DNA of 64,000 bases from an uncultured Candidatus Saccharibacteria bacterium. Lineage in GTDB: Bacteria > Patescibacteriota > Minisyncoccia > Phycocordibacterales > WO2-35-19. Both the position numbers and the translations under genes were made by a program. Under the pieces are notes generated by a model. It had not been told where the DNA came from. It searched no databases and saw only the letters and a list, made by a program, of their open reading frames with translations. Location of the stretch: assembly GCA_964589445.1 (NCBI GenBank), contig CAZPQX010000001.1:110098-174097 (forward strand). Reading direction: 5' to 3'. This document shows positions 10,033 through 63,002 of the stretch, in pieces. Position 1 is the first letter of the stretch. Each line of letters begins with the position of its first letter.

Positions 10033-10050
10033 AAGAATTTAATCAAAAAA

Positions 10051-10124
10051 CCTGAAACAAAATTCTGACTCCTCCTCCCTAAAGGGTTCCCTTGGGAGTC
10101 AAAATTTTGCTTCAGGTTTTTTTT
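10051..10124 (+). repeat. Type-B palindromic element copy (22-bp arms around tcctccctaaagggttccc) plus T-run; acts as the tig terminator
   Basis: cctgaaacaaaattctgactcc ... ggagtcaaaattttgcttcagg tttttttt; the same element occurs twice in-frame inside fmt (56193-56240, 56411-56460). Confidence 0.55.
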
Positions 10125-10304
10125 GGAGCTTCTGGAGAGTGGATAGAACAGATAAGTAAAAAGTAAAAATAGAATAAAAAAGGTGAAAAGTTATTGAGCG
10201 TGCCTTGCGGAGGCTGACTGAGCCGAGCAGAGCAAAAAACCAGCAGGTTTTTATGCGTGCTAAGCGAAATAAGCTTTTCACCTTTTTTATTAGGACCAAA
10301 TAAA

Positions 10305-22298: not shown

Positions 22299-22352
22299 AG
22301 GTTAACAAATATCCCAAAAATAGTCAAATACGGACTTCCCACTTTGTTAAAA

Positions 22353-22449
22353 TTCGGCTAGATATTTTCTGAGGAAAGCCTTGAACCAAAGAAGTAGCGG
22401 GTACCACTCCCGGGTTAGGGGTGCTTTTCGAAGAATATATCTAGCCGGA
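22353..22449. promoter_or_regulatory. Long inverted repeat between the uvrB stop and the S14 start; candidate structured leader of the S14-S8-L6... operon or an atypical uvrB terminator
   Basis: arms ttcggctagatattttct (22353-22370) and cgaagaatatatctagccgga (22429-22449) around a 58-nt GC-richer core (gggtaccactcccgggttagggg). Confidence 0.3.
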
Positions 22450-22457
22450 TTAAAAAA

Positions 22458-24581
22458 CTACTTTGTGAGCATTTTTTCGAGTTCCTTGATCTCGTCGCGG
22501 AGGATAGAAGCCGTCTCAAAGTCGAGGATTTTGACTGAGGCATTCATTTGTTTCTCTTTAGTTTTTATGAGCTTCTGTATACTCTTGGCACTTGCGTTTT
22601 TGGTGTCTATCGCCAAAAGCTGCCCTACTGCCTGCCTGTGCTCCTTCTGAAGCTGGTCAGTGATGTCTTTGATCTCTTTCTTGATAGTCATCGGTGTGAT
22701 GCCGTGCTCTGTGTTGTAAGCCACTTGGAGGGCTCGCCTCCTGTTTGTCTCATTTATAGCACGCTCCATAGAGCCAGTGAGGTTATCTGCATAAAGCACC
22801 ACCTTACCTTCTACATTCCTAGCCGCCCTACCTATAATTTGGATGAGCGAAGTCTCGCTACGAAGGAAACCTTCTTTGTCAGCATCGAGGATACCGATAA
22901 ACTCAACCTCAGGAAGATCGAGCCCTTCTCTCAATAGGTTGACCCCCACGAGCACATCAAACTCACCTCTCCTAAACTTTGTAAGTATCTCGATCCTCTC
23001 TATCGTCTTGATATCACTGTGCAAATATTCTGCTTTTATTTTTCTTTCTTTCAAAAACTCTGACAAATCTTCTGCCATTTTTTTGGTCAAGGTAGTAGCG
23101 ATGGCTCTGTTGCCTTTTTTGATTGCTTTCTCAGCTTCGTTTATAAAATCAAATATTTGTCCCGGATACGCAGAAATCTTTTCGAGAGCAACTTTCGGAC
23201 CGCGACCGGCGGGAGAAGGAGGGGATTTTTCAGCAGAAAAATACCCCGGTTGATCGAGAGAAGATTTCTGGGTATCCGACTTCTTTGCAATAATCGGTCT
23301 GATGAAAATCTCTGGATCGATAAGACCAGTAGGCCTGATCACTTGCTCAACGATATTTTGCGAATGCTCAGCTTCATATTTACCAGGAGTAGCAGAAGTA
23401 TAAATAGTTTGACCCACTCTTTTTTCAAACTCATCAGCCTTGAGTGGCCTGTTGTCCTTGGCACTTGGAAGCCTGAAACCGTGCTCTACGAGAGTTTGCT
23501 TCCTCGCTTGGTCACCATTGAACATGGCACCAATCTGAGGCACAGCTACATGCGACTCATCTATGATAGTCAAAAAGTCCGGGGTACCATCTGCCTTGTG
23601 TGGAAAATAAGAAAGGAGAGTATGGGGTGCTTCGCCTTCTTTCCTTCCGTCAAAATGCCTGGAGTAATTTTCAATACCACTGCAATACCCCACCTCCTTT
23701 ATCATCGAAAGATCATAAGTAGTCCTCCTCTTTATCCTCTCTGCTTCAAGTATCTTACCTTCCTTTTCAAACTTCTTTAATTGTTTAGCGAGCTCTTCTT
23801 TTATGTCTTTGATTGCCCTCTTAGTTTCAGCTTCTGGAGTGATGAAATGCTTGGCAGGAAAGAGAAAGAAAGCCTGTTTTTCTTCTACCACCTGCATAGT
23901 GATAGCATCTATAATTTCTATCTTGGCTATCTCATCACCAACTATTTCAAGTCTGAATATTTTTTTCTCTGACACAGGCATGATCTCAACTACATTTCCA
24001 GTTGAGCGGAAAACTCCAGGCGAAAGGTCTGCATTTGTCCTTTCATAATGGATAGCCACGAGCTTCAAAAAGAAATCTTTCCTATCGAACTTGTCCCCCT
24101 TTTTTATTTTTAGATTTACTTTTTGATATTCCACCGGAGAGCCTAGACCATATATACAAGAAACAGAGGCTACAATAATCACATCTTTCCTTGTAAGCAA
24201 AGCTTCGGTCGATGCATGGCGGAGCCTTTCTATCTCTTCGTTTATCATCGCCTCCTTCTCAATATATGTATCAGTCACGGGCATATAAGCTTCTGGCTGA
24301 TAGAAGTCGTAGTAAGAAACAAAATAATGAACAGCATTTTCAGGGAAAAATTCACGATACTCCTGTGCGAGCTGAGCGGCTAGAGTTTTGTTGTGAGCAA
24401 TCACAAGAGTCGGCTTTTGGAATTGTTGTATCACATTTGCAGCAGTAAAAGTCTTACCGCTCCCAGTCACACCTAGGAGTGTTTGTTTGTCTAAACCTTT
24501 TTTTAAGCCTTCAACAAGACCTTTTATAGCTTTAGGCTGATCTCCTGCTGGCTCGAATTTTGAATGTATTTTAAATTCCAT
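22458..24581 (-). CDS. uvrB: Excinuclease ABC subunit B, carrying an in-frame insertion of about 40 aa
   Basis: Helicase motifs, UvrB interaction domain and C-terminal UVR coiled coil; extra segment DTQKSSLDQPGYFSAEKSPPSPAGRGPKVALEKISAYPGQ between ...IRP and TTLTK relative to canonical UvrB. Confidence 0.9.
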   Translation of the reverse strand: MEFKIHSKFEPAGDQPKAIKGLVEGLKKGLDKQTLLGVTGSGKTFTAANVIQQFQKPTLVIAHNKTLAAQLAQEYREFFPENAVHYFVSYYDFYQPEAYMPVTDTYIEKEAMINEEIERLRHASTEALLTRKDVIIVASVSCIYGLGSPVEYQKVNLKIKKGDKFDRKDFFLKLVAIHYERTNADLSPGVFRSTGNVVEIMPVSEKKIFRLEIVGDEIAKIEIIDAITMQVVEEKQAFFLFPAKHFITPEAETKRAIKDIKEELAKQLKKFEKEGKILEAERIKRRTTYDLSMIKEVGYCSGIENYSRHFDGRKEGEAPHTLLSYFPHKADGTPDFLTIIDESHVAVPQIGAMFNGDQARKQTLVEHGFRLPSAKDNRPLKADEFEKRVGQTIYTSATPGKYEAEHSQNIVEQVIRPTGLIDPEIFIRPIIAKKSDTQKSSLDQPGYFSAEKSPPSPAGRGPKVALEKISAYPGQIFDFINEAEKAIKKGNRAIATTLTKKMAEDLSEFLKERKIKAEYLHSDIKTIERIEILTKFRRGEFDVLVGVNLLREGLDLPEVEFIGILDADKEGFLRSETSLIQIIGRAARNVEGKVVLYADNLTGSMERAINETNRRRALQVAYNTEHGITPMTIKKEIKDITDQLQKEHRQAVGQLLAIDTKNASAKSIQKLIKTKEKQMNASVKILDFETASILRDEIKELEKMLTK
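23171..23270. repeat. MITE-like palindromic element (type A), about 100 bp with about 22-bp TIRs, inserted in-frame in uvrB
   Basis: TIR cagaaatcttttcgagagcaac / gttgatcgagagaagatttctg; core gggagaaggaggggatttttcagcagaaaaataccccgg; near-identical copy in tgt. Confidence 0.6.
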
Positions 24582-25905
24582 AATAATTTTTCAAAAACTC
24601 CTGCTTATACTCCACGAAATTATCTTCGATAATAGACTCCCTTATTTTGTCTGTCATATTAACAACAAAATGTAAATTGTGAATAGTGGCGAGTGTAGCC
24701 GCCAGCATTTCCTTCGCCCTAAAAAGATGAGCGAGTATACTTCTATTATAATGAGTACAAGTATAACATTTGCACGAGTCATCTACTGGCCTCAGGTCAC
24801 TTCTAAAACTACTATTTAAAATTGAAATCCTGCCATGGATGGTGTGTAGGGTGCCATTGCGCGCCATCCTTGTCGGAGCCACACAGTCAAAAGTGTCACA
24901 ACCATTTTCAACCCCAAGGAAAATATCGATAGGCTCACCCACCCCCAAAAGGTGCCGCGGCTTTTCTTCGGGCAAAATTTCATTTACCCACCTCACAGCA
25001 GTACTCATGTCTTCTTTTATAAAAGTGCCTCCGATGCCGAAGCCGTCAAAATCGAGAGCAGCGATTTGTTTTGCACTCATCTTGCGAAGTTCTTCGTGCC
25101 TGCCACCTTGGACGATACCAAAAAGTTGTTGCCCTCTGGGACTTTCATTCTGCTCAGCAGGAGAAAAAATGTTCTTGAGAGCAACTTTCGGACCGTGAAT
25201 GACGGGAGAAGGAGGATATTTTTCAGCAGAAAAATAATCCGGTTGCTCGAGAGAATATTTTTTCTCCTGATGATTTTTCTGTAATATTTTATGCTCAACC
25301 AAACACCTCTTGGCCCAACGCTCGGTGCGCTCGATAGTTGATTTTATTTTTTCAAAAGAAGCGTGAGGAGAAGTGAATTCGTCGAGTGCAAAGATGATAT
25401 CCGCACCTATCTTACTCTGTATTTGCATCGAGTCTTCAGGCGACATAAACCTAGGGCTACCGTCTATTACAGATTTGAAGTGAACACCATCTTCAGTGAC
25501 TTTGGCCATTGAGCCCTCTTTTTCCTCTTCAATACTTTCTACCACCTCTCTTTCTGGGGAATCAGCCGAGACAAACTTACCTATACCACTACCACTCGCG
25601 ACACCAAGCGAAAAAGCCTGGAAGCCACCAGAGTCTGTCATAGTAGGAAGTTGCCAATTCATCATGCCGTGCAGACCTCCATTTTTTTCCACCAAATCTT
25701 CGCCTGGCTGCAAATGCAAGTGATATGTGTTGGCGAGCACTACCTGAGCGCCCAAATCTCTGACTTGCTCTGAAGTTACAGCTTTAACTGTGGCCTTTGT
25801 ACCTACAGGCACAAAGGCGGGGGTCTTGATACGCCCATGTACTGTCGATATCAAACCCGCCCGCCCTAGTGAACCTTTTAGTCTTTTTTCTATTTTAAAA
25901 CCCAT
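24571..25905 (-). CDS. tgt: Queuine tRNA-ribosyltransferase, carrying an in-frame insertion of about 45 aa
   Basis: DSGGFQ, LGVGEPIDIFLGVENGCDTFDCVAPTR and zinc site CKCYTCTHY; extra segment KKYSLEQPDYFSAEKYPPSPVIHGPKVALKNIFSPAEQ before LFGIVQGG. Confidence 0.9.
   Translation of the reverse strand: MGFKIEKRLKGSLGRAGLISTVHGRIKTPAFVPVGTKATVKAVTSEQVRDLGAQVVLANTYHLHLQPGEDLVEKNGGLHGMMNWQLPTMTDSGGFQAFSLGVASGSGIGKFVSADSPEREVVESIEEEKEGSMAKVTEDGVHFKSVIDGSPRFMSPEDSMQIQSKIGADIIFALDEFTSPHASFEKIKSTIERTERWAKRCLVEHKILQKNHQEKKYSLEQPDYFSAEKYPPSPVIHGPKVALKNIFSPAEQNESPRGQQLFGIVQGGRHEELRKMSAKQIAALDFDGFGIGGTFIKEDMSTAVRWVNEILPEEKPRHLLGVGEPIDIFLGVENGCDTFDCVAPTRMARNGTLHTIHGRISILNSSFRSDLRPVDDSCKCYTCTHYNRSILAHLFRAKEMLAATLATIHNLHFVVNMTDKIRESIIEDNFVEYKQEFLKNYYGI
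25158..25269. repeat. MITE-like palindromic element (type A), about 112 bp with 24-bp TIRs, inserted in-frame in tgt
   Basis: TIR caggagaaaaaatgttcttgagag / ctcgagagaatattttttctcctg (22/24 complementary); core gacgggagaaggaggatatttttcagcagaaaaataatccgg. Confidence 0.6.
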
Positions 25906-31671: not shown

Positions 31672-31850
31672 GGCCCTATCGTAAACGGTTAGTCGCCTCC
31701 TCGGCGACCCGCCGAGGAGGCGGGGACGGAGCCTTCTCAAGACTTAAAGAGGGGTTGAATTGCGAAAGCTTGGAGCAATTCAAAGCCGGACTGAGCGGAG
31801 GCGAAGGAGGCGGGGTCGTGGAAATTTTTAGCAAAAAATTATCTGTGACC
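31672..31850 (+). pseudogene. tRNA-Glu-like unit 1, disrupted by GC-rich hairpin insertions in the D-loop and T-loop regions (probably non-functional)
   Basis: Starts ggccctatcgtaaacggttag, then a 31-nt perfect hairpin (cgcctcctcggcg accc gccgaggaggcg), then ggacggagccttctcaagactt (CUC anticodon loop) and a disrupted T arm; no matching 3' acceptor strand. Confidence 0.3.
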
Positions 31851-31887
31851 GATTCCCAAATCGAACGTTGTGTAGTAAAAATATATG

Positions 31888-32050
31888 GCCCTATCGTCTA
31901 ACGGTTAGGACGGAGCCTTCGAGAGGTGAGGTTGGGATATGGGACCCAACCGCAAGACCTTTTGAGAATTTTTATGAGTAGAACGAAATAAAAAGCCCAA
32001 AAGGTGTACAGCGACTGTAAGTCGGAAAATTCGGGTTCGATACAATTAAA
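31888..32050 (+). pseudogene. tRNA-Glu-like unit 2: first 33 nt identical in register to the intact tRNA (through U33), then about 115 nt of unrelated GC-rich sequence and a T-arm remnant
   Basis: ggccctatcgtctaacggttaggacggagcctt | cgagaggtgaggttggg... ttcgggttcgatac; no 3' acceptor complement. Confidence 0.3.
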
Positions 32051-32054
32051 TAAT

Positions 32055-32126
32055 GGCCTCATCGTCTAACGGTTAGGACGGAGCCTTCTCAAGGCTTAAA
32101 TCGGGGTTCGATTCCCCGTGAGGTCA
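32055..32126 (+). tRNA. tRNA-Glu (anticodon CUC), 72 nt, CCA not encoded
   Basis: Cloverleaf by hand: acceptor ggcctca/tgaggtc (one G-U), D stem gtct/ggac, anticodon stem gagcc/ggctt with loop ttCTCaa, T arm cgggg-ttcgatt-ccccg. Confidence 0.75.
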
Positions 32127-32160
32127 CATTCAACAGCTAGCACGAGAAGCGTGCGAAATA

Positions 32161-32859
32161 ATGCTTCTTTACTGCCGAAGTTTTGTACATAATTACATTA
32201 TGAAGGAACACTTTGACAAAAATAAACGCCAGATATTGATGACAATTACACATCTGAATCGTTTTCATCTGCGCGCAGTAAGAAAAGATACTAAAGTAAG
32301 TGAAATTAGTTTAGATAATATTTTTGCAAAAATTATTATAGGGCTCTGGGTATCTCTATTAGAGGTTGAGTATGAATTATTAAACAGTAAAGTTGGATTA
32401 AAAAAAGAAAAAGATTCTTTAAAAGATAAATATTTGAAATTGTTAGATAGATTGTTTCAAGAAAAGTATTTAAATAATAGCGGAAAAGATATTAACCAAA
32501 GGAATTTAGGTCACGATAGTTATCATCGTTACAAAACTCTTAATGACATTATAAATAATGAATTAGCTAATTATATTGAGATTAGAAATAAAATAGCTCA
32601 TGGTCAATGGCATGTTGCTTTTTCAGATTCCGGAAAGGTTAATAATGACATAACCGCACATGTATGGAAATTATCTAAAAAAGATCTCCTCATTCTGAAA
32701 ACACTTGTCATAAATATACCTGCAATTTTAAATATTCTTTTTCAAAGCAAGAAAACTTTTGAAAGAGATTTTAATAAAATAATAAATAAAGTCTTATTAT
32801 CAAAAGAAGATAATGAAATCAGGTTTGGCTGGCTAAAAAATAAAGCTAGGAAAATATGA
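32161..32859 (+). CDS. Rx4H (HEPN-type) motif protein A, Abi-like; possible start at 32200 (MKEHFDK)
   Basis: ...ELANYIEIRNKIAHGQWHV... contains R-N-K-I-A-H in an alpha-helical context, resembling the RNxxAH signature of Abi_2/AbiD-type HEPN proteins; AT-rich accessory DNA next to a tRNA. Confidence 0.5.
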   Translation: MLLYCRSFVHNYIMKEHFDKNKRQILMTITHLNRFHLRAVRKDTKVSEISLDNIFAKIIIGLWVSLLEVEYELLNSKVGLKKEKDSLKDKYLKLLDRLFQEKYLNNSGKDINQRNLGHDSYHRYKTLNDIINNELANYIEIRNKIAHGQWHVAFSDSGKVNNDITAHVWKLSKKDLLILKTLVINIPAILNILFQSKKTFERDFNKIINKVLLSKEDNEIRFGWLKNKARKI

Positions 32860-33515
32860 GCCTTCTAGAAAATAAACCCAATAGTAAAGAGGAAAAAGTT
32901 CTAGAACTTTTCTATAATAGATTTTACGATTTGTACGAGGAATTATATCAAGAGGAGTTTTTTAAGAGAGAAGAATCCTACAGATTCTATCGAATACGAG
33001 AAATCTTTTCTGTATACAAAGAACTACTAGGGTATGAACCAATCCAATACTATATTAAATATGTTAAAAATGGGGGTAGACCACCTCTTGAGGGTTTAAT
33101 TGTTGATGATCTTTTTAGTTTTGTAAGAAACCTACTTCTACACTTTCCAGTTTTTGATAAATGGGAAGATGTTTACATAAGTAAAGATTTAGCTACTTGG
33201 AATAAAGTAGGTACTATTCATAAGTTTCTATTAAAAAGCAGTAAAATAAAAATCGATGATAGTGGAGTTATAAAATATAGGATATGGGAAAAGAGCAAAA
33301 AGCTAATGACTTATATTCAATTCCACTTACCAGAAGAATACAACGATAGTAGAAAAATATTCCTTAAAGAGGTTATTTCTGAAACAGATGGTATCAAACT
33401 TTGCATATCTTTTATGAAGCAAGTTCTAGATACACAAGTTCATTCTAATACTGAGGAGGATATTGTAATAATGTCTCAAGTTTACATGCCAATTCCTGAA
33501 ACTAGAAATCCATAG
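32856..33515 (+). CDS. Rx4H (HEPN-type) motif protein B, translationally coupled to protein A (ATGA overlap)
   Basis: ...DLFSFVRNLLLHFPVFDKWE... contains R-N-L-L-L-H; 4-nt overlap with the upstream gene. Confidence 0.5.
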   Translation: MSLLENKPNSKEEKVLELFYNRFYDLYEELYQEEFFKREESYRFYRIREIFSVYKELLGYEPIQYYIKYVKNGGRPPLEGLIVDDLFSFVRNLLLHFPVFDKWEDVYISKDLATWNKVGTIHKFLLKSSKIKIDDSGVIKYRIWEKSKKLMTYIQFHLPEEYNDSRKIFLKEVISETDGIKLCISFMKQVLDTQVHSNTEEDIVIMSQVYMPIPETRNP

Positions 33516-33679
33516 TCGCACGGGAAGGGTCATTAGAAACTTAATAACGTTACTCAGAATAACCTTACTGGACAACAAATCAGACAGGTTCTATCTCGAG
33601 AAGGCTCACCTTTTAGAGAGCGCTCGGGAAGGATATGAAAATTGGAGACTTTTTTCATTAAAAATGTATAATTTATTAA

Positions 33680-34303
33680 ATGGAATTTGTCTATATAGGT
33701 TTTGGATGGCTACTGGGTCTTTTAGCCCCAGCAACCACAAAACGGATTGCGGATCATTATGAAAAACAGAATCTTGAAAAGATTATTCTTAATGACATAA
33801 AAGATTTAAAGAAAAGACTCGGGGGAATACCCTATCTTGTATACCCTAAGCACGGAAAATTAAATCAAGAGATTTTTAATTGGATTAAAAGTAATTCTAG
33901 TATTGACTTCGATACCGGATTAACGCAACTTGCTGAACAAGGATTAACTGAGACCCAGATAATAAATCATCTAAATACAATAGGACAACAAGATGTAACA
34001 ACAACATACTTTAAGAAAGTAAACCTTTTTGCGACAGACTCTCATCTTACTAAATTAAGTTTAATTGAAAATAATCTAATGGAGAAAATTTTAGAGATAA
34101 AATTCCATGTACAAGCACTAAATGAAGACATCGATAGTTTTAGGGATGATCTAAAAATGACGTTTATGCCAGGAATCACTCCACAAAATCATATAATAGT
34201 ATCGGTTGAAATTGATAAAAAGAGTTTAATGATTGCAAAAAAGTCTATGTTTATAGTTGATAAAATTAATGAAATTCTATTCTCTCGAAAAGGGTCGAAA
34301 TAA
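33680..34303 (+). CDS. Hypothetical membrane-anchored protein (1 N-terminal TM helix), third gene of the accessory island
   Basis: MEFVYIGFGWLLGLLAPATT... TM helix, then a soluble domain with no recognised family; TGTATAAT box at 33657-33664. Confidence 0.45.
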   Translation: MEFVYIGFGWLLGLLAPATTKRIADHYEKQNLEKIILNDIKDLKKRLGGIPYLVYPKHGKLNQEIFNWIKSNSSIDFDTGLTQLAEQGLTETQIINHLNTIGQQDVTTTYFKKVNLFATDSHLTKLSLIENNLMEKILEIKFHVQALNEDIDSFRDDLKMTFMPGITPQNHIIVSVEIDKKSLMIAKKSMFIVDKINEILFSRKGSK

Positions 34304-34376
34304 TATACTTAAAAAACTTTAAATAGCCTTACGGAACAATGAACCCTGAGGCTCTATCTTGCTATACGCCCACAAA

Positions 34377-34405
34377 TTGACAATTACTTAATTTAGGAGT
34401 ATAAA
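34377..34405 (+). promoter_or_regulatory. Sigma70-like promoter TTGACA-17-TATAAA, followed by a 15-aa uORF (34422-34469, MKKLLGKDVCVYEKK) whose TGA overlaps the ATG of the downstream gene
   Basis: ttgaca(34377-82) attacttaatttaggag tataaa(34400-05); AGGAG RBS; ATGA coupling at 34466-34469. Confidence 0.35.
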
Positions 34406-34465
34406 AAAATAGGAGTACCTCATGAAAAAACTACTAGGTAAAGATGTTTGTGTATATGAGAAAAA

Positions 34466-35035
34466 ATGAATACGACTAATAGAACACAACAGCTCTGCGA
34501 CGCCCTCAAACAAGGCGCACCCTGGGGTTCACTCGCAAGATTCCTCGACACGATCAATTTGATCGAAGAATTGGAACAATTGGCCCCTATACTCCATGGA
34601 TCAAATAAAGCGGATCTAGCCGAGTACTACAAGGAGAACCTCCTTCGGTGGCCTGACCCCCAATTGCCGGCAGGGTTCAGCGAGAAGTACCCCCTGTTCT
34701 CTGCACGGCTAGATACACCAGGAAAAATTCGCATTCTTTTGCGGGGTGCATACTACCGCGATGTCCCCCCAGAAATTATGGGCGATGTTTTCGAAGAGAT
34801 CATCCGCCGTCACGAGGTGGAAGGCGAGAGAAAAATCGTTTATCGCAACTACCGCAACACTACGCGCGATCGCGCTTTGCGAATCGTATACCACACCCAG
34901 CTCCCATACTGGACCCTGACGGAACTGGCCCTGAATGGAATGCCCAACGTCGGCATTTCTACCAAAGAAGGTCTCTTCCTCGATTGGAGAACAAAAGAGG
35001 AGAGACTCGCAGCCGGCGAAACCGTGTATTCATAG
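34466..35035 (+). CDS. Hypothetical protein (189 aa), high-GC islet
   Basis: Abrupt GC jump exactly at the start codon; terminator with the same 3' end (ggcggattttgtt) as the 8140 gene. Confidence 0.5.
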   Translation: MNTTNRTQQLCDALKQGAPWGSLARFLDTINLIEELEQLAPILHGSNKADLAEYYKENLLRWPDPQLPAGFSEKYPLFSARLDTPGKIRILLRGAYYRDVPPEIMGDVFEEIIRRHEVEGERKIVYRNYRNTTRDRALRIVYHTQLPYWTLTELALNGMPNVGISTKEGLFLDWRTKEERLAAGETVYS

Positions 35036-49687: not shown

Positions 49688-50902
49688 TTAGATAAGTTTC
49701 AATATGTCACGGTATGTCACAAAAAGCATGAGCGCTATCAGGATGAAAAATCCTGCCACATTTGTATACTCTGCGAACTTTTTGTTTATGGGCCTCTTTG
49801 TGATTGCCTCGACAGCCACAAACACAAGCCTACCGCCATCGAGAGCTGGAAATGGCAGAAGATTTATAACCGCCAAGTTTATAGAAATAAGAGCAGTAAA
49901 TGTCACGAGATAAGAAAACCCGAGTTTGGACGCGTCTCCCACCAAACCAACAATACCCACAGGACCAGAAACCTGAGAAACATCAGCCTGCCCCATGAAC
50001 GCATCTTTTATGAGACTCAGAGTCCCAGAGACAGTGAGATAAGTGATAGTAAAAGTAGCTTTGACTCCTTGATATAGTGCCTTATGGATAGGAAGCTTTA
50101 AGGTGCCTACTGTGTCCATACTTATACCAATGGCTTTCTTGCCTTCAACCAAATTTGAATTTGGCTCTATTTCAAAATCAAAAATTTCGTTACCTCTCTC
50201 AACTTTCACACCCACCAAACCTTCTGAAGTATTTATGAGACCTGAGACTTGCTCTGTAGTCGGACTTTTGAAAGAAGAATTTTTGTCAGAAACTTCTATG
50301 ATTTTGTCGCCCGTCTTGAGACCAGAAAGACTAGCAGGAGAGTCTTCGAGCACGCTCACTACTGTAGTTACAGGATTTTCGACTTGGCCTCCAAAATCAT
50401 TTTCGAGTGGAGCTGGTACTCCAATAAGGAAACTTAAAGAAAAAAGCATCCAGGCAAAAATAATATTGAACGTGACACCTGCTGCAAGTATAGTCGCCTG
50501 CCACTTTTTTGAAACTTCTGTAAATCTAAAATTTTTCTGAACAAAATATTCAGAAGAGGCTAGCGAGCCTGACTGAGGCGAGCTCGAGGAAAAATTCAGC
50601 AGAATTTTATCCGTGCTCTTCTGGGTATTTTGTGAAGAAAAATTTTCATTCTTTCGACTCGCAGAAACAACTTCACTGTCTTCCTCATAATTTTCTCCCA
50701 AAATTTTGACGAACCCACCAAAAGGAATCCAGTTGATACTAAAAAGAGTGCCCCATCTTTTACCAAGAGAAATAGCTCTCGGCGGATATCCAAAACCAAA
50801 CTCCTCTACTGCGACACCCGCTTTTTTAGCAGCAAGAAAGTGCCCAAGTTCATGGACAAAAACCAAAACGCTTAAAATTAAGATGAAAATAATTACAGTC
50901 AT
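49688..50902 (-). CDS. rseP: Site-2 protease RseP (M50 zinc metalloprotease with PDZ domain)
   Basis: HELGHFLAAK (HExxH) in the first TM region, PDZ domain, C-terminal LDGG motif. Confidence 0.85.
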   Translation of the reverse strand: MTVIIFILILSVLVFVHELGHFLAAKKAGVAVEEFGFGYPPRAISLGKRWGTLFSINWIPFGGFVKILGENYEEDSEVVSASRKNENFSSQNTQKSTDKILLNFSSSSPQSGSLASSEYFVQKNFRFTEVSKKWQATILAAGVTFNIIFAWMLFSLSFLIGVPAPLENDFGGQVENPVTTVVSVLEDSPASLSGLKTGDKIIEVSDKNSSFKSPTTEQVSGLINTSEGLVGVKVERGNEIFDFEIEPNSNLVEGKKAIGISMDTVGTLKLPIHKALYQGVKATFTITYLTVSGTLSLIKDAFMGQADVSQVSGPVGIVGLVGDASKLGFSYLVTFTALISINLAVINLLPFPALDGGRLVFVAVEAITKRPINKKFAEYTNVAGFFILIALMLFVTYRDILKLI

Positions 50903-55701: not shown

Positions 55702-56832
55702 ATGATTCATGATTCAAAAAAAATAGCATTTTTCGGTAGCTCAGAATTCAGTGTTTATGTCCTAGATGAACTCCTTTTGCATGGTATAAAACCCTCACTC
55801 ATAGTCACTACACCAGACAAACCAAAAGGTAGGAAGCTAGTGCTCACCCCCAACCCCTGCAAAGTTTGGGCAATAGAAAATGATATTGAAGTTATCGCCC
55901 CTGCTTCTCTTAAAAAAGACAACGAATCCCTGATCCAAAACCTGAAAACTAAAAACTACGACCTATTTTTGGTCGCTTCTTATGGCAAAATAATCCCCAA
56001 AGAGATTTTTGAAATCCCTACAAAACAAACTTTGAACATCCACCCTTCTATGCTCCCGAAATACAGAGGTGCCTCCCCTATCCAATCACAAATTTTAAAT
56101 AATGAAAAAGAAATCGGCGTGAGCATCATGGTCATTAGTGAGGGTATGGATGAGGGGCCGGTGATAACTCAAAAAATTCTTCCGCATCATGCAAATTTTG
56201 ATCGTTCCTCCCTGAAGGGTTCCCACACGACTCAAAATTTCCACGATGCTTCAGAATTTCTGAAGCCGCAGGGTTTTGGGGGGCTTGCGAGCTTGACTGA
56301 AGCGAGCACGAGGAATTTTTTAGCAGAAAAATATCCGTGCCCCCAAAACTCTGTGGCGGAAGAAATTTCCTCGAATCAAAATTTTGATCGTTCTTCAGGC
56401 AAACCAAATGAAAATTTTGACTCCTCCTCCCTAAAGGGTTCCCACGGAGATCAAAATTTTCATTTGGTTTGCCTTGGGAGGATAGAGCTCGAAAGGGTAT
56501 TAGCTATTGAAGGCGCTCGCCTTTTCGCCCACATACTCCCAGAATGGATGCAAGGAGCTATTGACCCCATAATGCAAAACGAAGCAGAGGCGACTTACTG
56601 CAAAAAAATAGAAAAAGAAGATGGGCTTTTGGACTTAAACGACGACCCATACAAAAATTATTTAAAAATAAAAGCCCTTGAAGGCTGGCCTGGCACTTAC
56701 TTTTTCCTAGATGGTAAAAGAGTGATAATCAAAGAAGCCACATTTGAAAATGGTGAACTCGAAATATTAAAAGTCATCCCCGAAGGCAAAAAAGAAATGC
56801 CTTACTCTGACTTCCTCCGTGGACAAAAATAA
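55702..56832 (+). CDS. fmt: Methionyl-tRNA formyltransferase carrying an in-frame insertion of about 70 aa built from palindromic repeat elements
   Basis: N-terminal formyltransferase domain (IHPSMLPKYRGASPIQSQIL) and C-terminal domain intact; 376 aa vs about 310 typical; inserted region contains NFDRSSLKGSHTTQNFH / NFDSSSLKGSHGDQNFH repeats and RNFLAEKYP. Confidence 0.85.
   Translation: MIHDSKKIAFFGSSEFSVYVLDELLLHGIKPSLIVTTPDKPKGRKLVLTPNPCKVWAIENDIEVIAPASLKKDNESLIQNLKTKNYDLFLVASYGKIIPKEIFEIPTKQTLNIHPSMLPKYRGASPIQSQILNNEKEIGVSIMVISEGMDEGPVITQKILPHHANFDRSSLKGSHTTQNFHDASEFLKPQGFGGLASLTEASTRNFLAEKYPCPQNSVAEEISSNQNFDRSSGKPNENFDSSSLKGSHGDQNFHLVCLGRIELERVLAIEGARLFAHILPEWMQGAIDPIMQNEAEATYCKKIEKEDGLLDLNDDPYKNYLKIKALEGWPGTYFFLDGKRVIIKEATFENGELEILKVIPEGKKEMPYSDFLRGQK
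56193..56460. repeat. Cluster of repeat elements inside fmt: two type-B palindromic copies (56193-56240, 56411-56460), a half copy (56377-56400) and a type-A-related core (about 56305-56340)
   Basis: gaaaattttgactcctcctccctaaagggttcccacggagatcaaaattttc matches the intergenic copy at 10051-10124; aggaattttttagcagaaaaatatccg matches the uvrB/tgt element core. Confidence 0.5.
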
Positions 56833-62227: not shown

Positions 62228-62822
62228 GGATAGGTTTACACTCAAGGCTGGTATACTTATGTATATATGCCAGAGAAGAGAACCTATGCTGATCGTGCTG
62301 AATATTTGCGAGAAGCCGTCAAAAAAAGAAGGAAAAAACTTCGAGAAATGGCTCGCGAATATGGTGGAGGTAAGTGTGCAATATGTGGTTATAAAAAATC
62401 ACCAAGAGCACTAGCCTTTCATCATCTCAACCCACAAGAAAAAGATTTTGGACTTTCCGTTAAAGGATTGACCAGATCCTGGGAAAAGATGAGGAAAGAA
62501 ATAGATAAATGTATCTTGCTTTGCGCAAACTGCCACGCAGAAGTGCACGATGGTATTACGCAGCTTCCCGAGGTAACTCGGGTTGAAAAACGAGGTGAAT
62601 TCGGGGAAGCCCTTCGTGGGTAATCCCGAGCCAAGACCAGCACTAATTTTGGTTTTTAATTTTTATAAATCAAAATTAGTGCTGGTAAGGTGTAGAGACT
62701 ATCCGTAATTGGAGTACTTTTCGGACTAAAAGTCCGGATGGGAAGCGCCTCGCCACTTATATCTCACAGAGATTTTAAGTGGATGATATAGTCCATCCCT
62801 CTTAGAAATTTGAGGATAAATG
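62228..62822 (+). mobile_element. Group I intron (about 595 nt) within the tRNA anticodon loop
   Basis: Catalytic-core hallmarks near the 3' end: R-like tttcggactaaaagtccgg and S-like gatgatatagtcc (P7 pairing gacta/tagtc); intron ends with G before exon 2; encodes an HNH ORF. Confidence 0.6.
62267..62623 (+). CDS. HNH homing endonuclease encoded within the group I intron
   Basis: GGGKCAICGYKK...LAFHHLNPQEKDFG...LLCANCHAEVHDG (Cys pairs, HH and N...CANCH HNH motif). Confidence 0.75.
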   Translation: MPEKRTYADRAEYLREAVKKRRKKLREMAREYGGGKCAICGYKKSPRALAFHHLNPQEKDFGLSVKGLTRSWEKMRKEIDKCILLCANCHAEVHDGITQLPEVTRVEKRGEFGEALRG

Positions 62823-63002
62823 TAACTCGTTGGTCGTAGGTTCGAATCCTACCCGCGGAGCAACAAACACGAAGTCCTGATGCGTAGCATTAGGGCTTTT
62901 GTGTTTGTATCTGCCTGTAGGATTCGAACCGAAGGTGCCTGTTTTTAAGGAATAAGATGACTATAAAAACAGAGCATCTCGACCGGAAGAATGGAGGGAG
63001 AG

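Follow-up and report, generated by a model that had tools for sequence, protein, structure and literature searches.

A dispersed palindromic repeat with a three-way-junction fold, lying in frame in uvrB, tgt and other genes of Paceibacteria, is a probable counterpart of the Rickettsia palindromic elements

Why should two neighbouring housekeeping genes of an uncultured Candidatus Saccharibacteria bacterium, uvrB and tgt, each carry a closely similar palindromic segment that leaves its reading frame intact? We analysed the 64,000-nt stretch of DNA that contains both genes (GenBank assembly GCA_964589445.1, contig CAZPQX010000001.1, positions 110,098 to 174,097 of the forward strand; hereafter the window). 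The uvrB gene (22458..24581, minus strand) encodes a protein of 707 aa that is otherwise canonical (E = 1.9e-235 to a solved UvrB), and tgt (24571..25905, minus strand) encodes one of 444 aa. A sequence-only reading of this stretch had taken the two segments for selfish, frame-keeping DNA similar to the Rickettsia palindromic elements (RPEs). Our results are in line with that proposal. The segments are copies of what we call the Y element, probably a non-autonomous dispersed palindromic repeat of Paceibacteria, within the Candidate Phyla Radiation (CPR), which behaves like an RPE in being multi-copy, in frame in unrelated genes and variable at orthologous sites.

The uvrB copy spans 23163..23278 and the tgt copy 25154..25273. 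Both have their folding strand, the one that reads AGCA, on the plus strand and hence antisense to the gene, and they score 109 and 109.3 bits, respectively, with R1, a covariance model built from element copies. A repeat finder returned 23174-23267 and 25167-25260 as a direct repeat of 94 nt with 86% identity, and two core patterns of the repeat occurred exactly twice each in the window and in none of 100 shuffles. The repeat lies where the earlier reading had placed it. Inverted arms of 30 nt (23163-23192/23249-23278, 83% complementary) bound the uvrB copy and arms of 32 nt (25154-25185/25242-25273, 84% complementary) the tgt copy. Their inner 12 to 14 bp or so are common to the copies; the outer sequence differs, yet stays paired. 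The 22- to 24-bp terminal inverted repeats (TIRs) of the earlier description thus exist as inverted arms, of 30 to 32 nt, but they are not conserved terminal repeats.

Both host open reading frames (ORFs) are open and both inserts are in frame, with an addition close to the 40 to 45 aa that had been estimated. In the solved structure 9gy7_E, chain residues 427 and 428 are adjacent where the UvrB of the window has the additional residues 431-472 (42 aa, or 126 nt), and Tgt residues 202-252 stand opposite just 7 residues of the Zymomonas mobilis TGT, which makes about 44 aa extra. The peptide FSAEK is read in both orientations, as the codons confirm (TTT TCT GCT GAA AAA and TTT TCA GCA GAA AAA), and the antisense ORF artefacts that had been said to share ESNFRT..GRRR..FFSRKI are present. 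In an AlphaFold model of UvrB, which is of moderate quality (mean predicted local distance difference test score, pLDDT, 62.9), residues 433-473 are predicted as coil with pLDDT < 50 between a confident strand and a confident helix; the Tgt insert falls in a variable linker when compared with solved TGT structures. Tgt has a further 30-residue insert relative to these structures, at residues 102-131 (window 25512-25602), which is not a Y element and is common to all four syntenic relatives.

R1 matched the window five times (10180-10284, 23168-23273, 25161-25266, 50536-50638 and 56260-56362), with the folding strand on the plus strand in every case, and the opposite strand scored only about 14 bits. 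Every copy forms the same Y-shaped three-way junction, made of a long stem P1 and two hairpins, P2 and P3. P2 consists of two short helices, of 3 bp and 4 bp, separated by an internal loop (GGA/GA or GA/GA) and capped by a loop of 4 to 5 nt; the junction reads NGAG; and P3 has a stem of roughly 10 bp, in which one A is bulged, and the loop C-AGCA-G. In the uvrB copy, P2a pairs TTC (23194-23196) with GAA (23215-23217), the internal loop is GGA (23197-23199) opposite GA (23213-23214), P2b pairs CCGC (23200-23203) with GCGG (23209-23212) around the loop GACCG, J2/3 is GGA (23218-23220), and P3 pairs 23221-23231 with 23236-23247 around the loop AGCA (23232-23235). The tgt copy has CCGT/ACGG in P2b and GGAT/ATCC at the base of P3, both compensatory with respect to the uvrB copy. 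Further compensatory variants were seen among the copies, both in P2b (CCGC/GCGG, CCGT/ACGG, GCCT/AGGC and GCTT/AAGC) and in P3 (ATTTTTC/GAAAAAT versus AAAATTC/GAATTTT). The conserved unit of approximately 75 to 95 nt is the three-way-junction core (P2, P3 and NGAG) closed by a short inner stem, and below it continues a longer stem, the outer part of which is specific to each copy. The branched unit as a whole is 106 to 120 nt long, and the folding z-scores of the copies range from -4.6 to -7.1.

The element is by no means confined to the window. A pattern scan of species-representative genomes gave 20 loci from metagenome-assembled genomes (MAGs) of Zambryskibacteria and other Paceibacteria, some of them labelled Saccharibacteria, although the UvrB of these is 78% identical to that of the window; one MAG had seven near-identical copies, several at contig ends. 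Judged by the names of its homologs, the organism of the window itself belongs to Paceibacteria/Parcubacteria, near Zambryskibacteria. In the genome loci and the syntenic loci, R1 matched 27 times, extra copies included; metagenome contigs, scanned with a looser pattern, yielded 92 loci, in which R1 matched 107 times. In total we count 128 distinct copies from genomes and metagenomes, at about 110 Paceibacteria loci. Copies within one genome have in common only the core and 7 to 14 bp of inner stem. Close-set pairs of Y elements in opposite orientation, which resemble the pairs of repetitive extragenic palindromic (REP) sequences in bacterial interspersed mosaic elements (BIMEs), occur at L017:3955-4192, L050:2510-2737, L061:744-1007 and L008:5522-5840. 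The element matched no phage or plasmid record and nothing in IMG/VR. A profile made from the 42-aa peptide of the insert matched nothing in a set of 5.8 billion proteins and a representative set of 1.84 billion, a query too short to be informative about absence.

Covariation among these copies is extensive. The 18 genome copies align almost without gaps, and 29 of their 38 predicted pairs change on both sides; 91.2% of cells are paired, compared with 70.2% in shuffles, none of 500 of which reaches the observed value, and sliding the partners lowers pairing to 39-61%. For the 93 distinct metagenome copies, whose alignment was fitted to R1 and thus leans towards it, 94.5% of cells are paired versus 60.2% in shuffles, and 36 of the 38 pairs show compensatory changes. 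The scan patterns fix some core columns by ascertainment; in copies that lie outside these patterns and were found by R1 only, the loop and junction nucleotides are unchanged.

The fold is also specific to one strand. Folded as RNA, the plus strands of the copies reached -60.5 and -57.6 kcal/mol, compared with -48.2 and -44.7 kcal/mol for their complements, and folding as DNA gave -34.7 versus -26.7. In the paired columns of the metagenome set, G:T outnumbers A:C (145 versus 27) and G:A outnumbers C:T (97 versus 25); part of the G:A excess comes from a tandem G-A motif, CGAG opposite CGAG, that recurs in P1 and beside P2. Because the same bias is present to an equal degree in sense, antisense and intergenic copies, the fold belongs to the element's own strand and not to the host mRNA.

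How do genes tolerate such an insertion? For 41 of the 128 distinct copies (24 antisense and 17 sense), the position is well within an open frame of 200 aa or more; most of the others are intergenic. Our check of the frame of every copy showed that all coding copies (41 to 44 depending on the criterion, about a third of the copies) are stop-free and in frame and that no gene is interrupted. The consensus is stop-free in four of its six frames, and coding copies use all four ('..QPGYFSAEKSPxSRASRxPKVAL..', '..SREQLSERDWRESEGIFQQKNTP..', '..FLAEKYP..' and '..ILLNFS..'). No gene split by the element, in the sense of an ORF that ends in it and resumes on the same strand, was found among the copies; five candidates were rejected, being elements just past a stop codon or spanned by an ORF on the opposite strand. 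The hosts are unrelated families, at least 12 in total. Among 34 ORFs scanned, Tgt was the host in 7, TsaD and TruB in 5 each, UvrC and UvrB in 4 each, and RNase R/II in 3, with a signal peptidase, an ABC ATPase, Fmt and a methyltransferase as further hosts; the window adds an M50 protease and Fmt. From the open frames we conclude that the gene-embedded copies are presumably translated, as loops of 35 to 45 residues.

A comparison of orthologous sites, which had been suggested as a check of lineage specificity in UvrB and Tgt, showed sites that are filled, empty, flipped or occupied by other families. Across 25 UvrB homologs, the site between 'RPIxxx' and 'YPGQI' holds the same peptide family in seven (72-86% identity), other insert families in several and nothing in four. 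Three syntenic relatives, L021, L022 and L023, have UvrB proteins 90%, 86% and 81% identical, respectively. At their uvrB site, L022 agrees with the window in its element; L021 has a complete copy that points the other way and, after it, the final ~40 nt of a copy of the window type; and L023 has a truncated copy of the L021 type. At the Tgt site, L021 is filled, L022 has a different insert family and L023 is empty. The TruB site has a sense copy in L031, L068 and L077 and an antisense copy in L024; in L103 and L081 (flank 89% identical) the inner 83 nt are gone and the outer palindrome AAGAATCAAGAGAATCTTTTTCTTGATTCTT is kept, with the junction at an AGAGAA direct repeat. Copies at the same site in different genomes differ in their outer stems, each of which is still paired, as when the UvrB Y-P codons read TATCCG or TACCCA and the partner arms match. 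Simple inversion between the arms was considered for the flipped orientation and rejected, as the outer arms of flipped copies differ. An insertion fixed at one ancestral site had been named as the finding that would speak against a mobile element. Orthologs at 72-86% identity do carry the segment at the same site, but they are interleaved with empty and flipped sites, and many copies lie elsewhere.

A small number of permissive sites receive insertions again and again, and several families accumulate there. Besides the Y element, short in-frame inserts of several other families recur at the variable UvrB, Tgt, TsaD and TruB sites, in many cases next to the Y element or nested with it, so that the phenomenon is broader than one family. 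We noted a PLLxKERGxGGEV / SPASRRGAGGEV family (P0010/P0016/P0027, L036, L030, L007, L074 and L090), an SKSPRVSS..ARLFS family (tgt of L022, P0068 and P0009) and a DPSTSSGRAxI family in the UvrB C-terminal region of relatives.

How, then, might such an element spread? It may do so via the folded single-stranded form of one particular strand, most likely single-stranded DNA (ssDNA), handled by a trans-acting enzyme that would be encoded outside the window. We favour a single-stranded form because compensatory pairing reaches the small internal hairpins, wobble and G-A pairs are one-sided, and the pattern is independent of the direction of host transcription. The copy-specific outer stems could result if the element lands in the apex of hairpins that are already present, be they terminators or elements of earlier date; hot spots and nesting would then be accounted for. 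Alternatively, the stems could come from hairpin-templated correction and extension. Selection would then spare no copies but those that are in frame, free of stops and placed in permissive surface loops, and copies would decay through internal deletions. Landing in hairpins has partial support from an A-run and a T-run around the stem in 9 of 72 intergenic copies (the reverse arrangement occurs in 0 of 72), two such cases being in the tig/rsmE spacer. The stricter notion that every intergenic copy sits in a terminator hairpin was given up at this count, and a simple terminator scan found nothing because the element takes up the 'loop'.

Several observations weigh against a mobile, selfish repeat. 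Neither a target-site duplication nor a nearly identical strain with a cleanly empty site was found, so that both the unit boundaries and the direction of the event, insertion or deletion, are unproven; the L015/L002 and L036/L109 pairs yielded no clean empty-site junctions. The compensatory stem differences between orthologous copies could mean structural selection in place, and compensatory change in place is not predicted for a purely selfish, dead insertion. The folding strand is the plus strand in 5/5 window copies, which by GC skew, a measure confounded with gene direction in the window, is not the lagging-strand template and is the opposite of IS200/IS605-type elements. No mobilising enzyme was found in the 64-kb window, which apart from housekeeping genes has just one XerC/D-type recombinase and the HNH endonuclease of an intron, and translation of the inserts is deduced from open frames, not observed. 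Beyond the dispersed repeat itself, one may entertain, as an unlikely proposition, an undescribed mobility system in which the three-way junction is the recognition structure and folded ssDNA or RNA is inserted by a dedicated enzyme into hairpin apexes, or else a use of the fold by the host. If such a system exists, nested layers of palindromes would continuously add surface loops to essential CPR proteins.

Could the Y element instead be a classical miniature inverted-repeat transposable element (MITE), that is, an internally deleted insertion sequence (IS) moved as double-stranded DNA by a TIR-recognising DDE transposase? It is small, non-coding, multi-copy and palindromic, and MITE-type mobility does exist in this lineage. 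Directly past the uvrB stop codon, at 22351-22451, lies an unrelated 100-nt hairpin element. None of the three syntenic relatives has it, the site in relatives being cleanly empty, and direct repeats of 8 bp (CAAAGTAG / CAAAGTGG, gene strand) stand on either side of it, like the target-site duplication of a classical MITE, which it appears to be. For the Y element, the label 'MITE-like with TIRs' given earlier was not supported. Its outer arms differ even within one genome, where only the core and a short inner stem are common, and direct repeats at the boundaries of 105 copies, boundaries that are themselves uncertain, matched the control, giving no target-site duplication above background. 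Compensatory internal hairpins and a one-sided excess of G:T and G:A are unexpected for recognition as double-stranded DNA, and the window has no transposase. We consider a classical MITE improbable.

A functional structured RNA, be it a cis-regulatory element, a protein-binding motif or an intron-like excised hairpin whose peptide is never made, would fit the very strong covariation, the conserved loop and junction nucleotides, the strand-specific folding and the compensatory stem differences at orthologous sites, and it could draw on the position of the intergenic copies, 55 of which are near gene 3' ends and 24 near 5' ends. Orientation speaks against it, however. In a census based on rough gene calls, 26 coding copies have a folding strand antisense to the host gene and 18 have one that is sense, and among the 25 copies that are at most 15 nt from a stop codon, 20 are antisense to that gene and 5 sense; such mixed and antisense orientation argues against a motif that acts within the host mRNA. 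An excised element would have no need to be stop-free and in frame, which all coding copies are, and the chance that all are open when four of six frames are open is about 0.67^44. No Rfam family matched the element at gathering score, with nothing above chance level at E <= 10, and in a by-eye reading of the sequence the core lacks recognisable ribozyme-like features; hammerhead-like ribozymes, K-turns, integron attC sites and ssoA origins, compared in the same way, had only generic tandem G-A motifs in common with it and were rejected. A structured RNA of this kind therefore seems very improbable to us. Finally, the segments could be loops of long standing in the UvrB and Tgt proteins of this lineage, retained for protein function, with a DNA palindrome that is incidental. 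This would account for the recurrence of one peptide family at matching UvrB and Tgt positions in orthologs as distant as about 72% identity. The idea can practically be dismissed, however, being already contradicted by the intergenic and opposite-orientation copies, by the range of hosts, at least 12 unrelated proteins with the nucleotide element in four frames and either orientation, and by sites that are empty or flipped in close relatives.

With a dispersed palindromic repeat as the preferred reading, the closest known behaviour is that of the RPEs (Ogata et al. 2000/2002), palindromic repeats of ~100 to 150 bp that occur in frame in unrelated housekeeping ORFs and in intergenic DNA of a reduced, host-dependent genome, add a conserved, fold-compatible peptide and have no known transposase (PMC10969869). 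Like these, as described there, the Y element is a short palindromic repeat of a reduced, host-dependent genome, found both in frame and between genes and without a known transposase. The likeness is one of behaviour; we claim neither a sequence relationship nor membership of an RPE family. Unlike RPEs, the Y element belongs to Patescibacteria/CPR, has a three-way-junction core, a variable outer stem and strand-specific folding, uses four frames and both orientations, and nests with other insert families at recurrent hot spots.

Classical MITEs (for example Correia/NEMIS, RUP and Coxiella QMITE1/2) are likewise small, non-autonomous, multi-copy sequences that form hairpins, and some lie within genes as in-frame fusions (PMC10969869), whereas the Y element has no conserved TIRs, no target-site duplication and, in the 64-kb window, no identifiable parent IS. 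It also has traits in common with REP/BIME sequences, which are mobilised by REP-associated tyrosine transposases (RAYTs; IS200/IS605-like Y1 HUH). In both, the hairpin structure is conserved rather than the terminal sequence, a strand-specific single-strand fold is implied, there is no target duplication, copies are often at gene 3' ends, and inverted pairs occur (for the Y element, at L017, L050 and L061). REPs, however, are simple extragenic hairpins of 20 to 40 nt with a 5' GTAG-type motif, while the Y element is about 110 nt, branched and intragenic in a third of cases, and no RAYT/Y1 transposase gene was seen in the 64-kb window. Fungal mitochondria also harbour mobile hairpin and GC-cluster elements (double-hairpin elements and small inverted repeats), small structured repeats that invade coding regions and keep the frame; these are organellar and differ in sequence and structure.

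Full-text literature searches gave no relevant paper that joins palindromic elements, MITEs or RPEs with CPR, Patescibacteria or Parcubacteria, in agreement with the earlier reading, which knew of no description of such elements in CPR bacteria. As far as these searches show, the novelty lies in the phylum in which these RPE-like in-frame repeats occur and in their distinctive core, a three-way junction. The occurrence of selfish DNA within coding sequences, known mainly from Rickettsia, would extend to the CPR, and a second reduced, host-dependent group with such elements suggests a recurrent outcome of genome reduction. Many length differences among CPR versions of UvrB, UvrC, Tgt, TsaD, TruB, RNase R and Fmt may be repeat insertions and not functional domains, which has consequences for the annotation, alignment, phylogenomics and structure prediction of CPR proteins; in addition, near-identical copies break MAG assemblies. 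With hundreds of diverse copies and a sharp strand-specific fold, the Y element would be better material than RPEs for the question of how such repeats move, open since 2000.

The other three window copies illustrate the range of settings. A divergent copy at 50528..50646 (plus strand, antisense to the gene; R1 64.7 bits) lies in the gene of an M50 (RseP-like) site-2 protease (49688..50902, minus strand), where it is read in frame as '..KILLNFSSSSPQSGS..' and has the P3 stem AAAATTC/GAATTTT. Another divergent copy, at 56255..56367 (plus strand, sense to the gene; R1 70.2 bits), lies in fmt (55702..56832, plus strand, 376 aa) and is read in frame as '..ASLTEASTRNFLAEKYPCP..'. Fmt has about 100 extra residues between its N and C domains, which correspond to three adjacent hairpin elements, at 56174-56259, 56255-56367 (the Y element) and 56397-56474. 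An intergenic copy at 10173..10291 (plus strand; R1 50.1 bits) lies between the convergent genes tig and rsmE; its outer stem pairs perfectly over 18 bp and stands between an A-run and a T-run.

The two hairpins on either side of the Y element in fmt are in-frame copies of a second hairpin-repeat family with the core CCTCCCTRAAGGGTTCCC, which occurs in the window at 10045-10122, 56174-56259 and 56397-56474, and at L095:1173-1190. Its copies, too, have near-perfect outer stems that are copy specific, and one intergenic copy has an A-run and a T-run around the stem.

Other features of the window concern introns and tRNA genes. A group I intron (Rfam RF00028, 64.5 bits) at 62535-62815 lies within the region 62267-62862, an HNH endonuclease ORF (62267-62623) overlaps its 5' part, and a sequence resembling a tRNA 3' half, GGTCGTAGGTTCGAATCCTACCCGCGGAGCA, follows it; the region is probably an intron-split tRNA gene that was not called by ARAGORN. 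Elsewhere, four consecutive ORFs (232, 219, 207 and 189 aa) without a Pfam match occupy 32161-35035, next to a tRNA region at 31700-32127. In the latter, two tRNA-Glu-like 5' halves (31724-31761 and 31885-31920) are present upstream of an intact tRNA-Glu gene (32055-32127), each followed by ~100 nt of inserted sequence that includes a P3-like hairpin, GGAAATTTTTAGCAAAAAATTATC (31819-31843).

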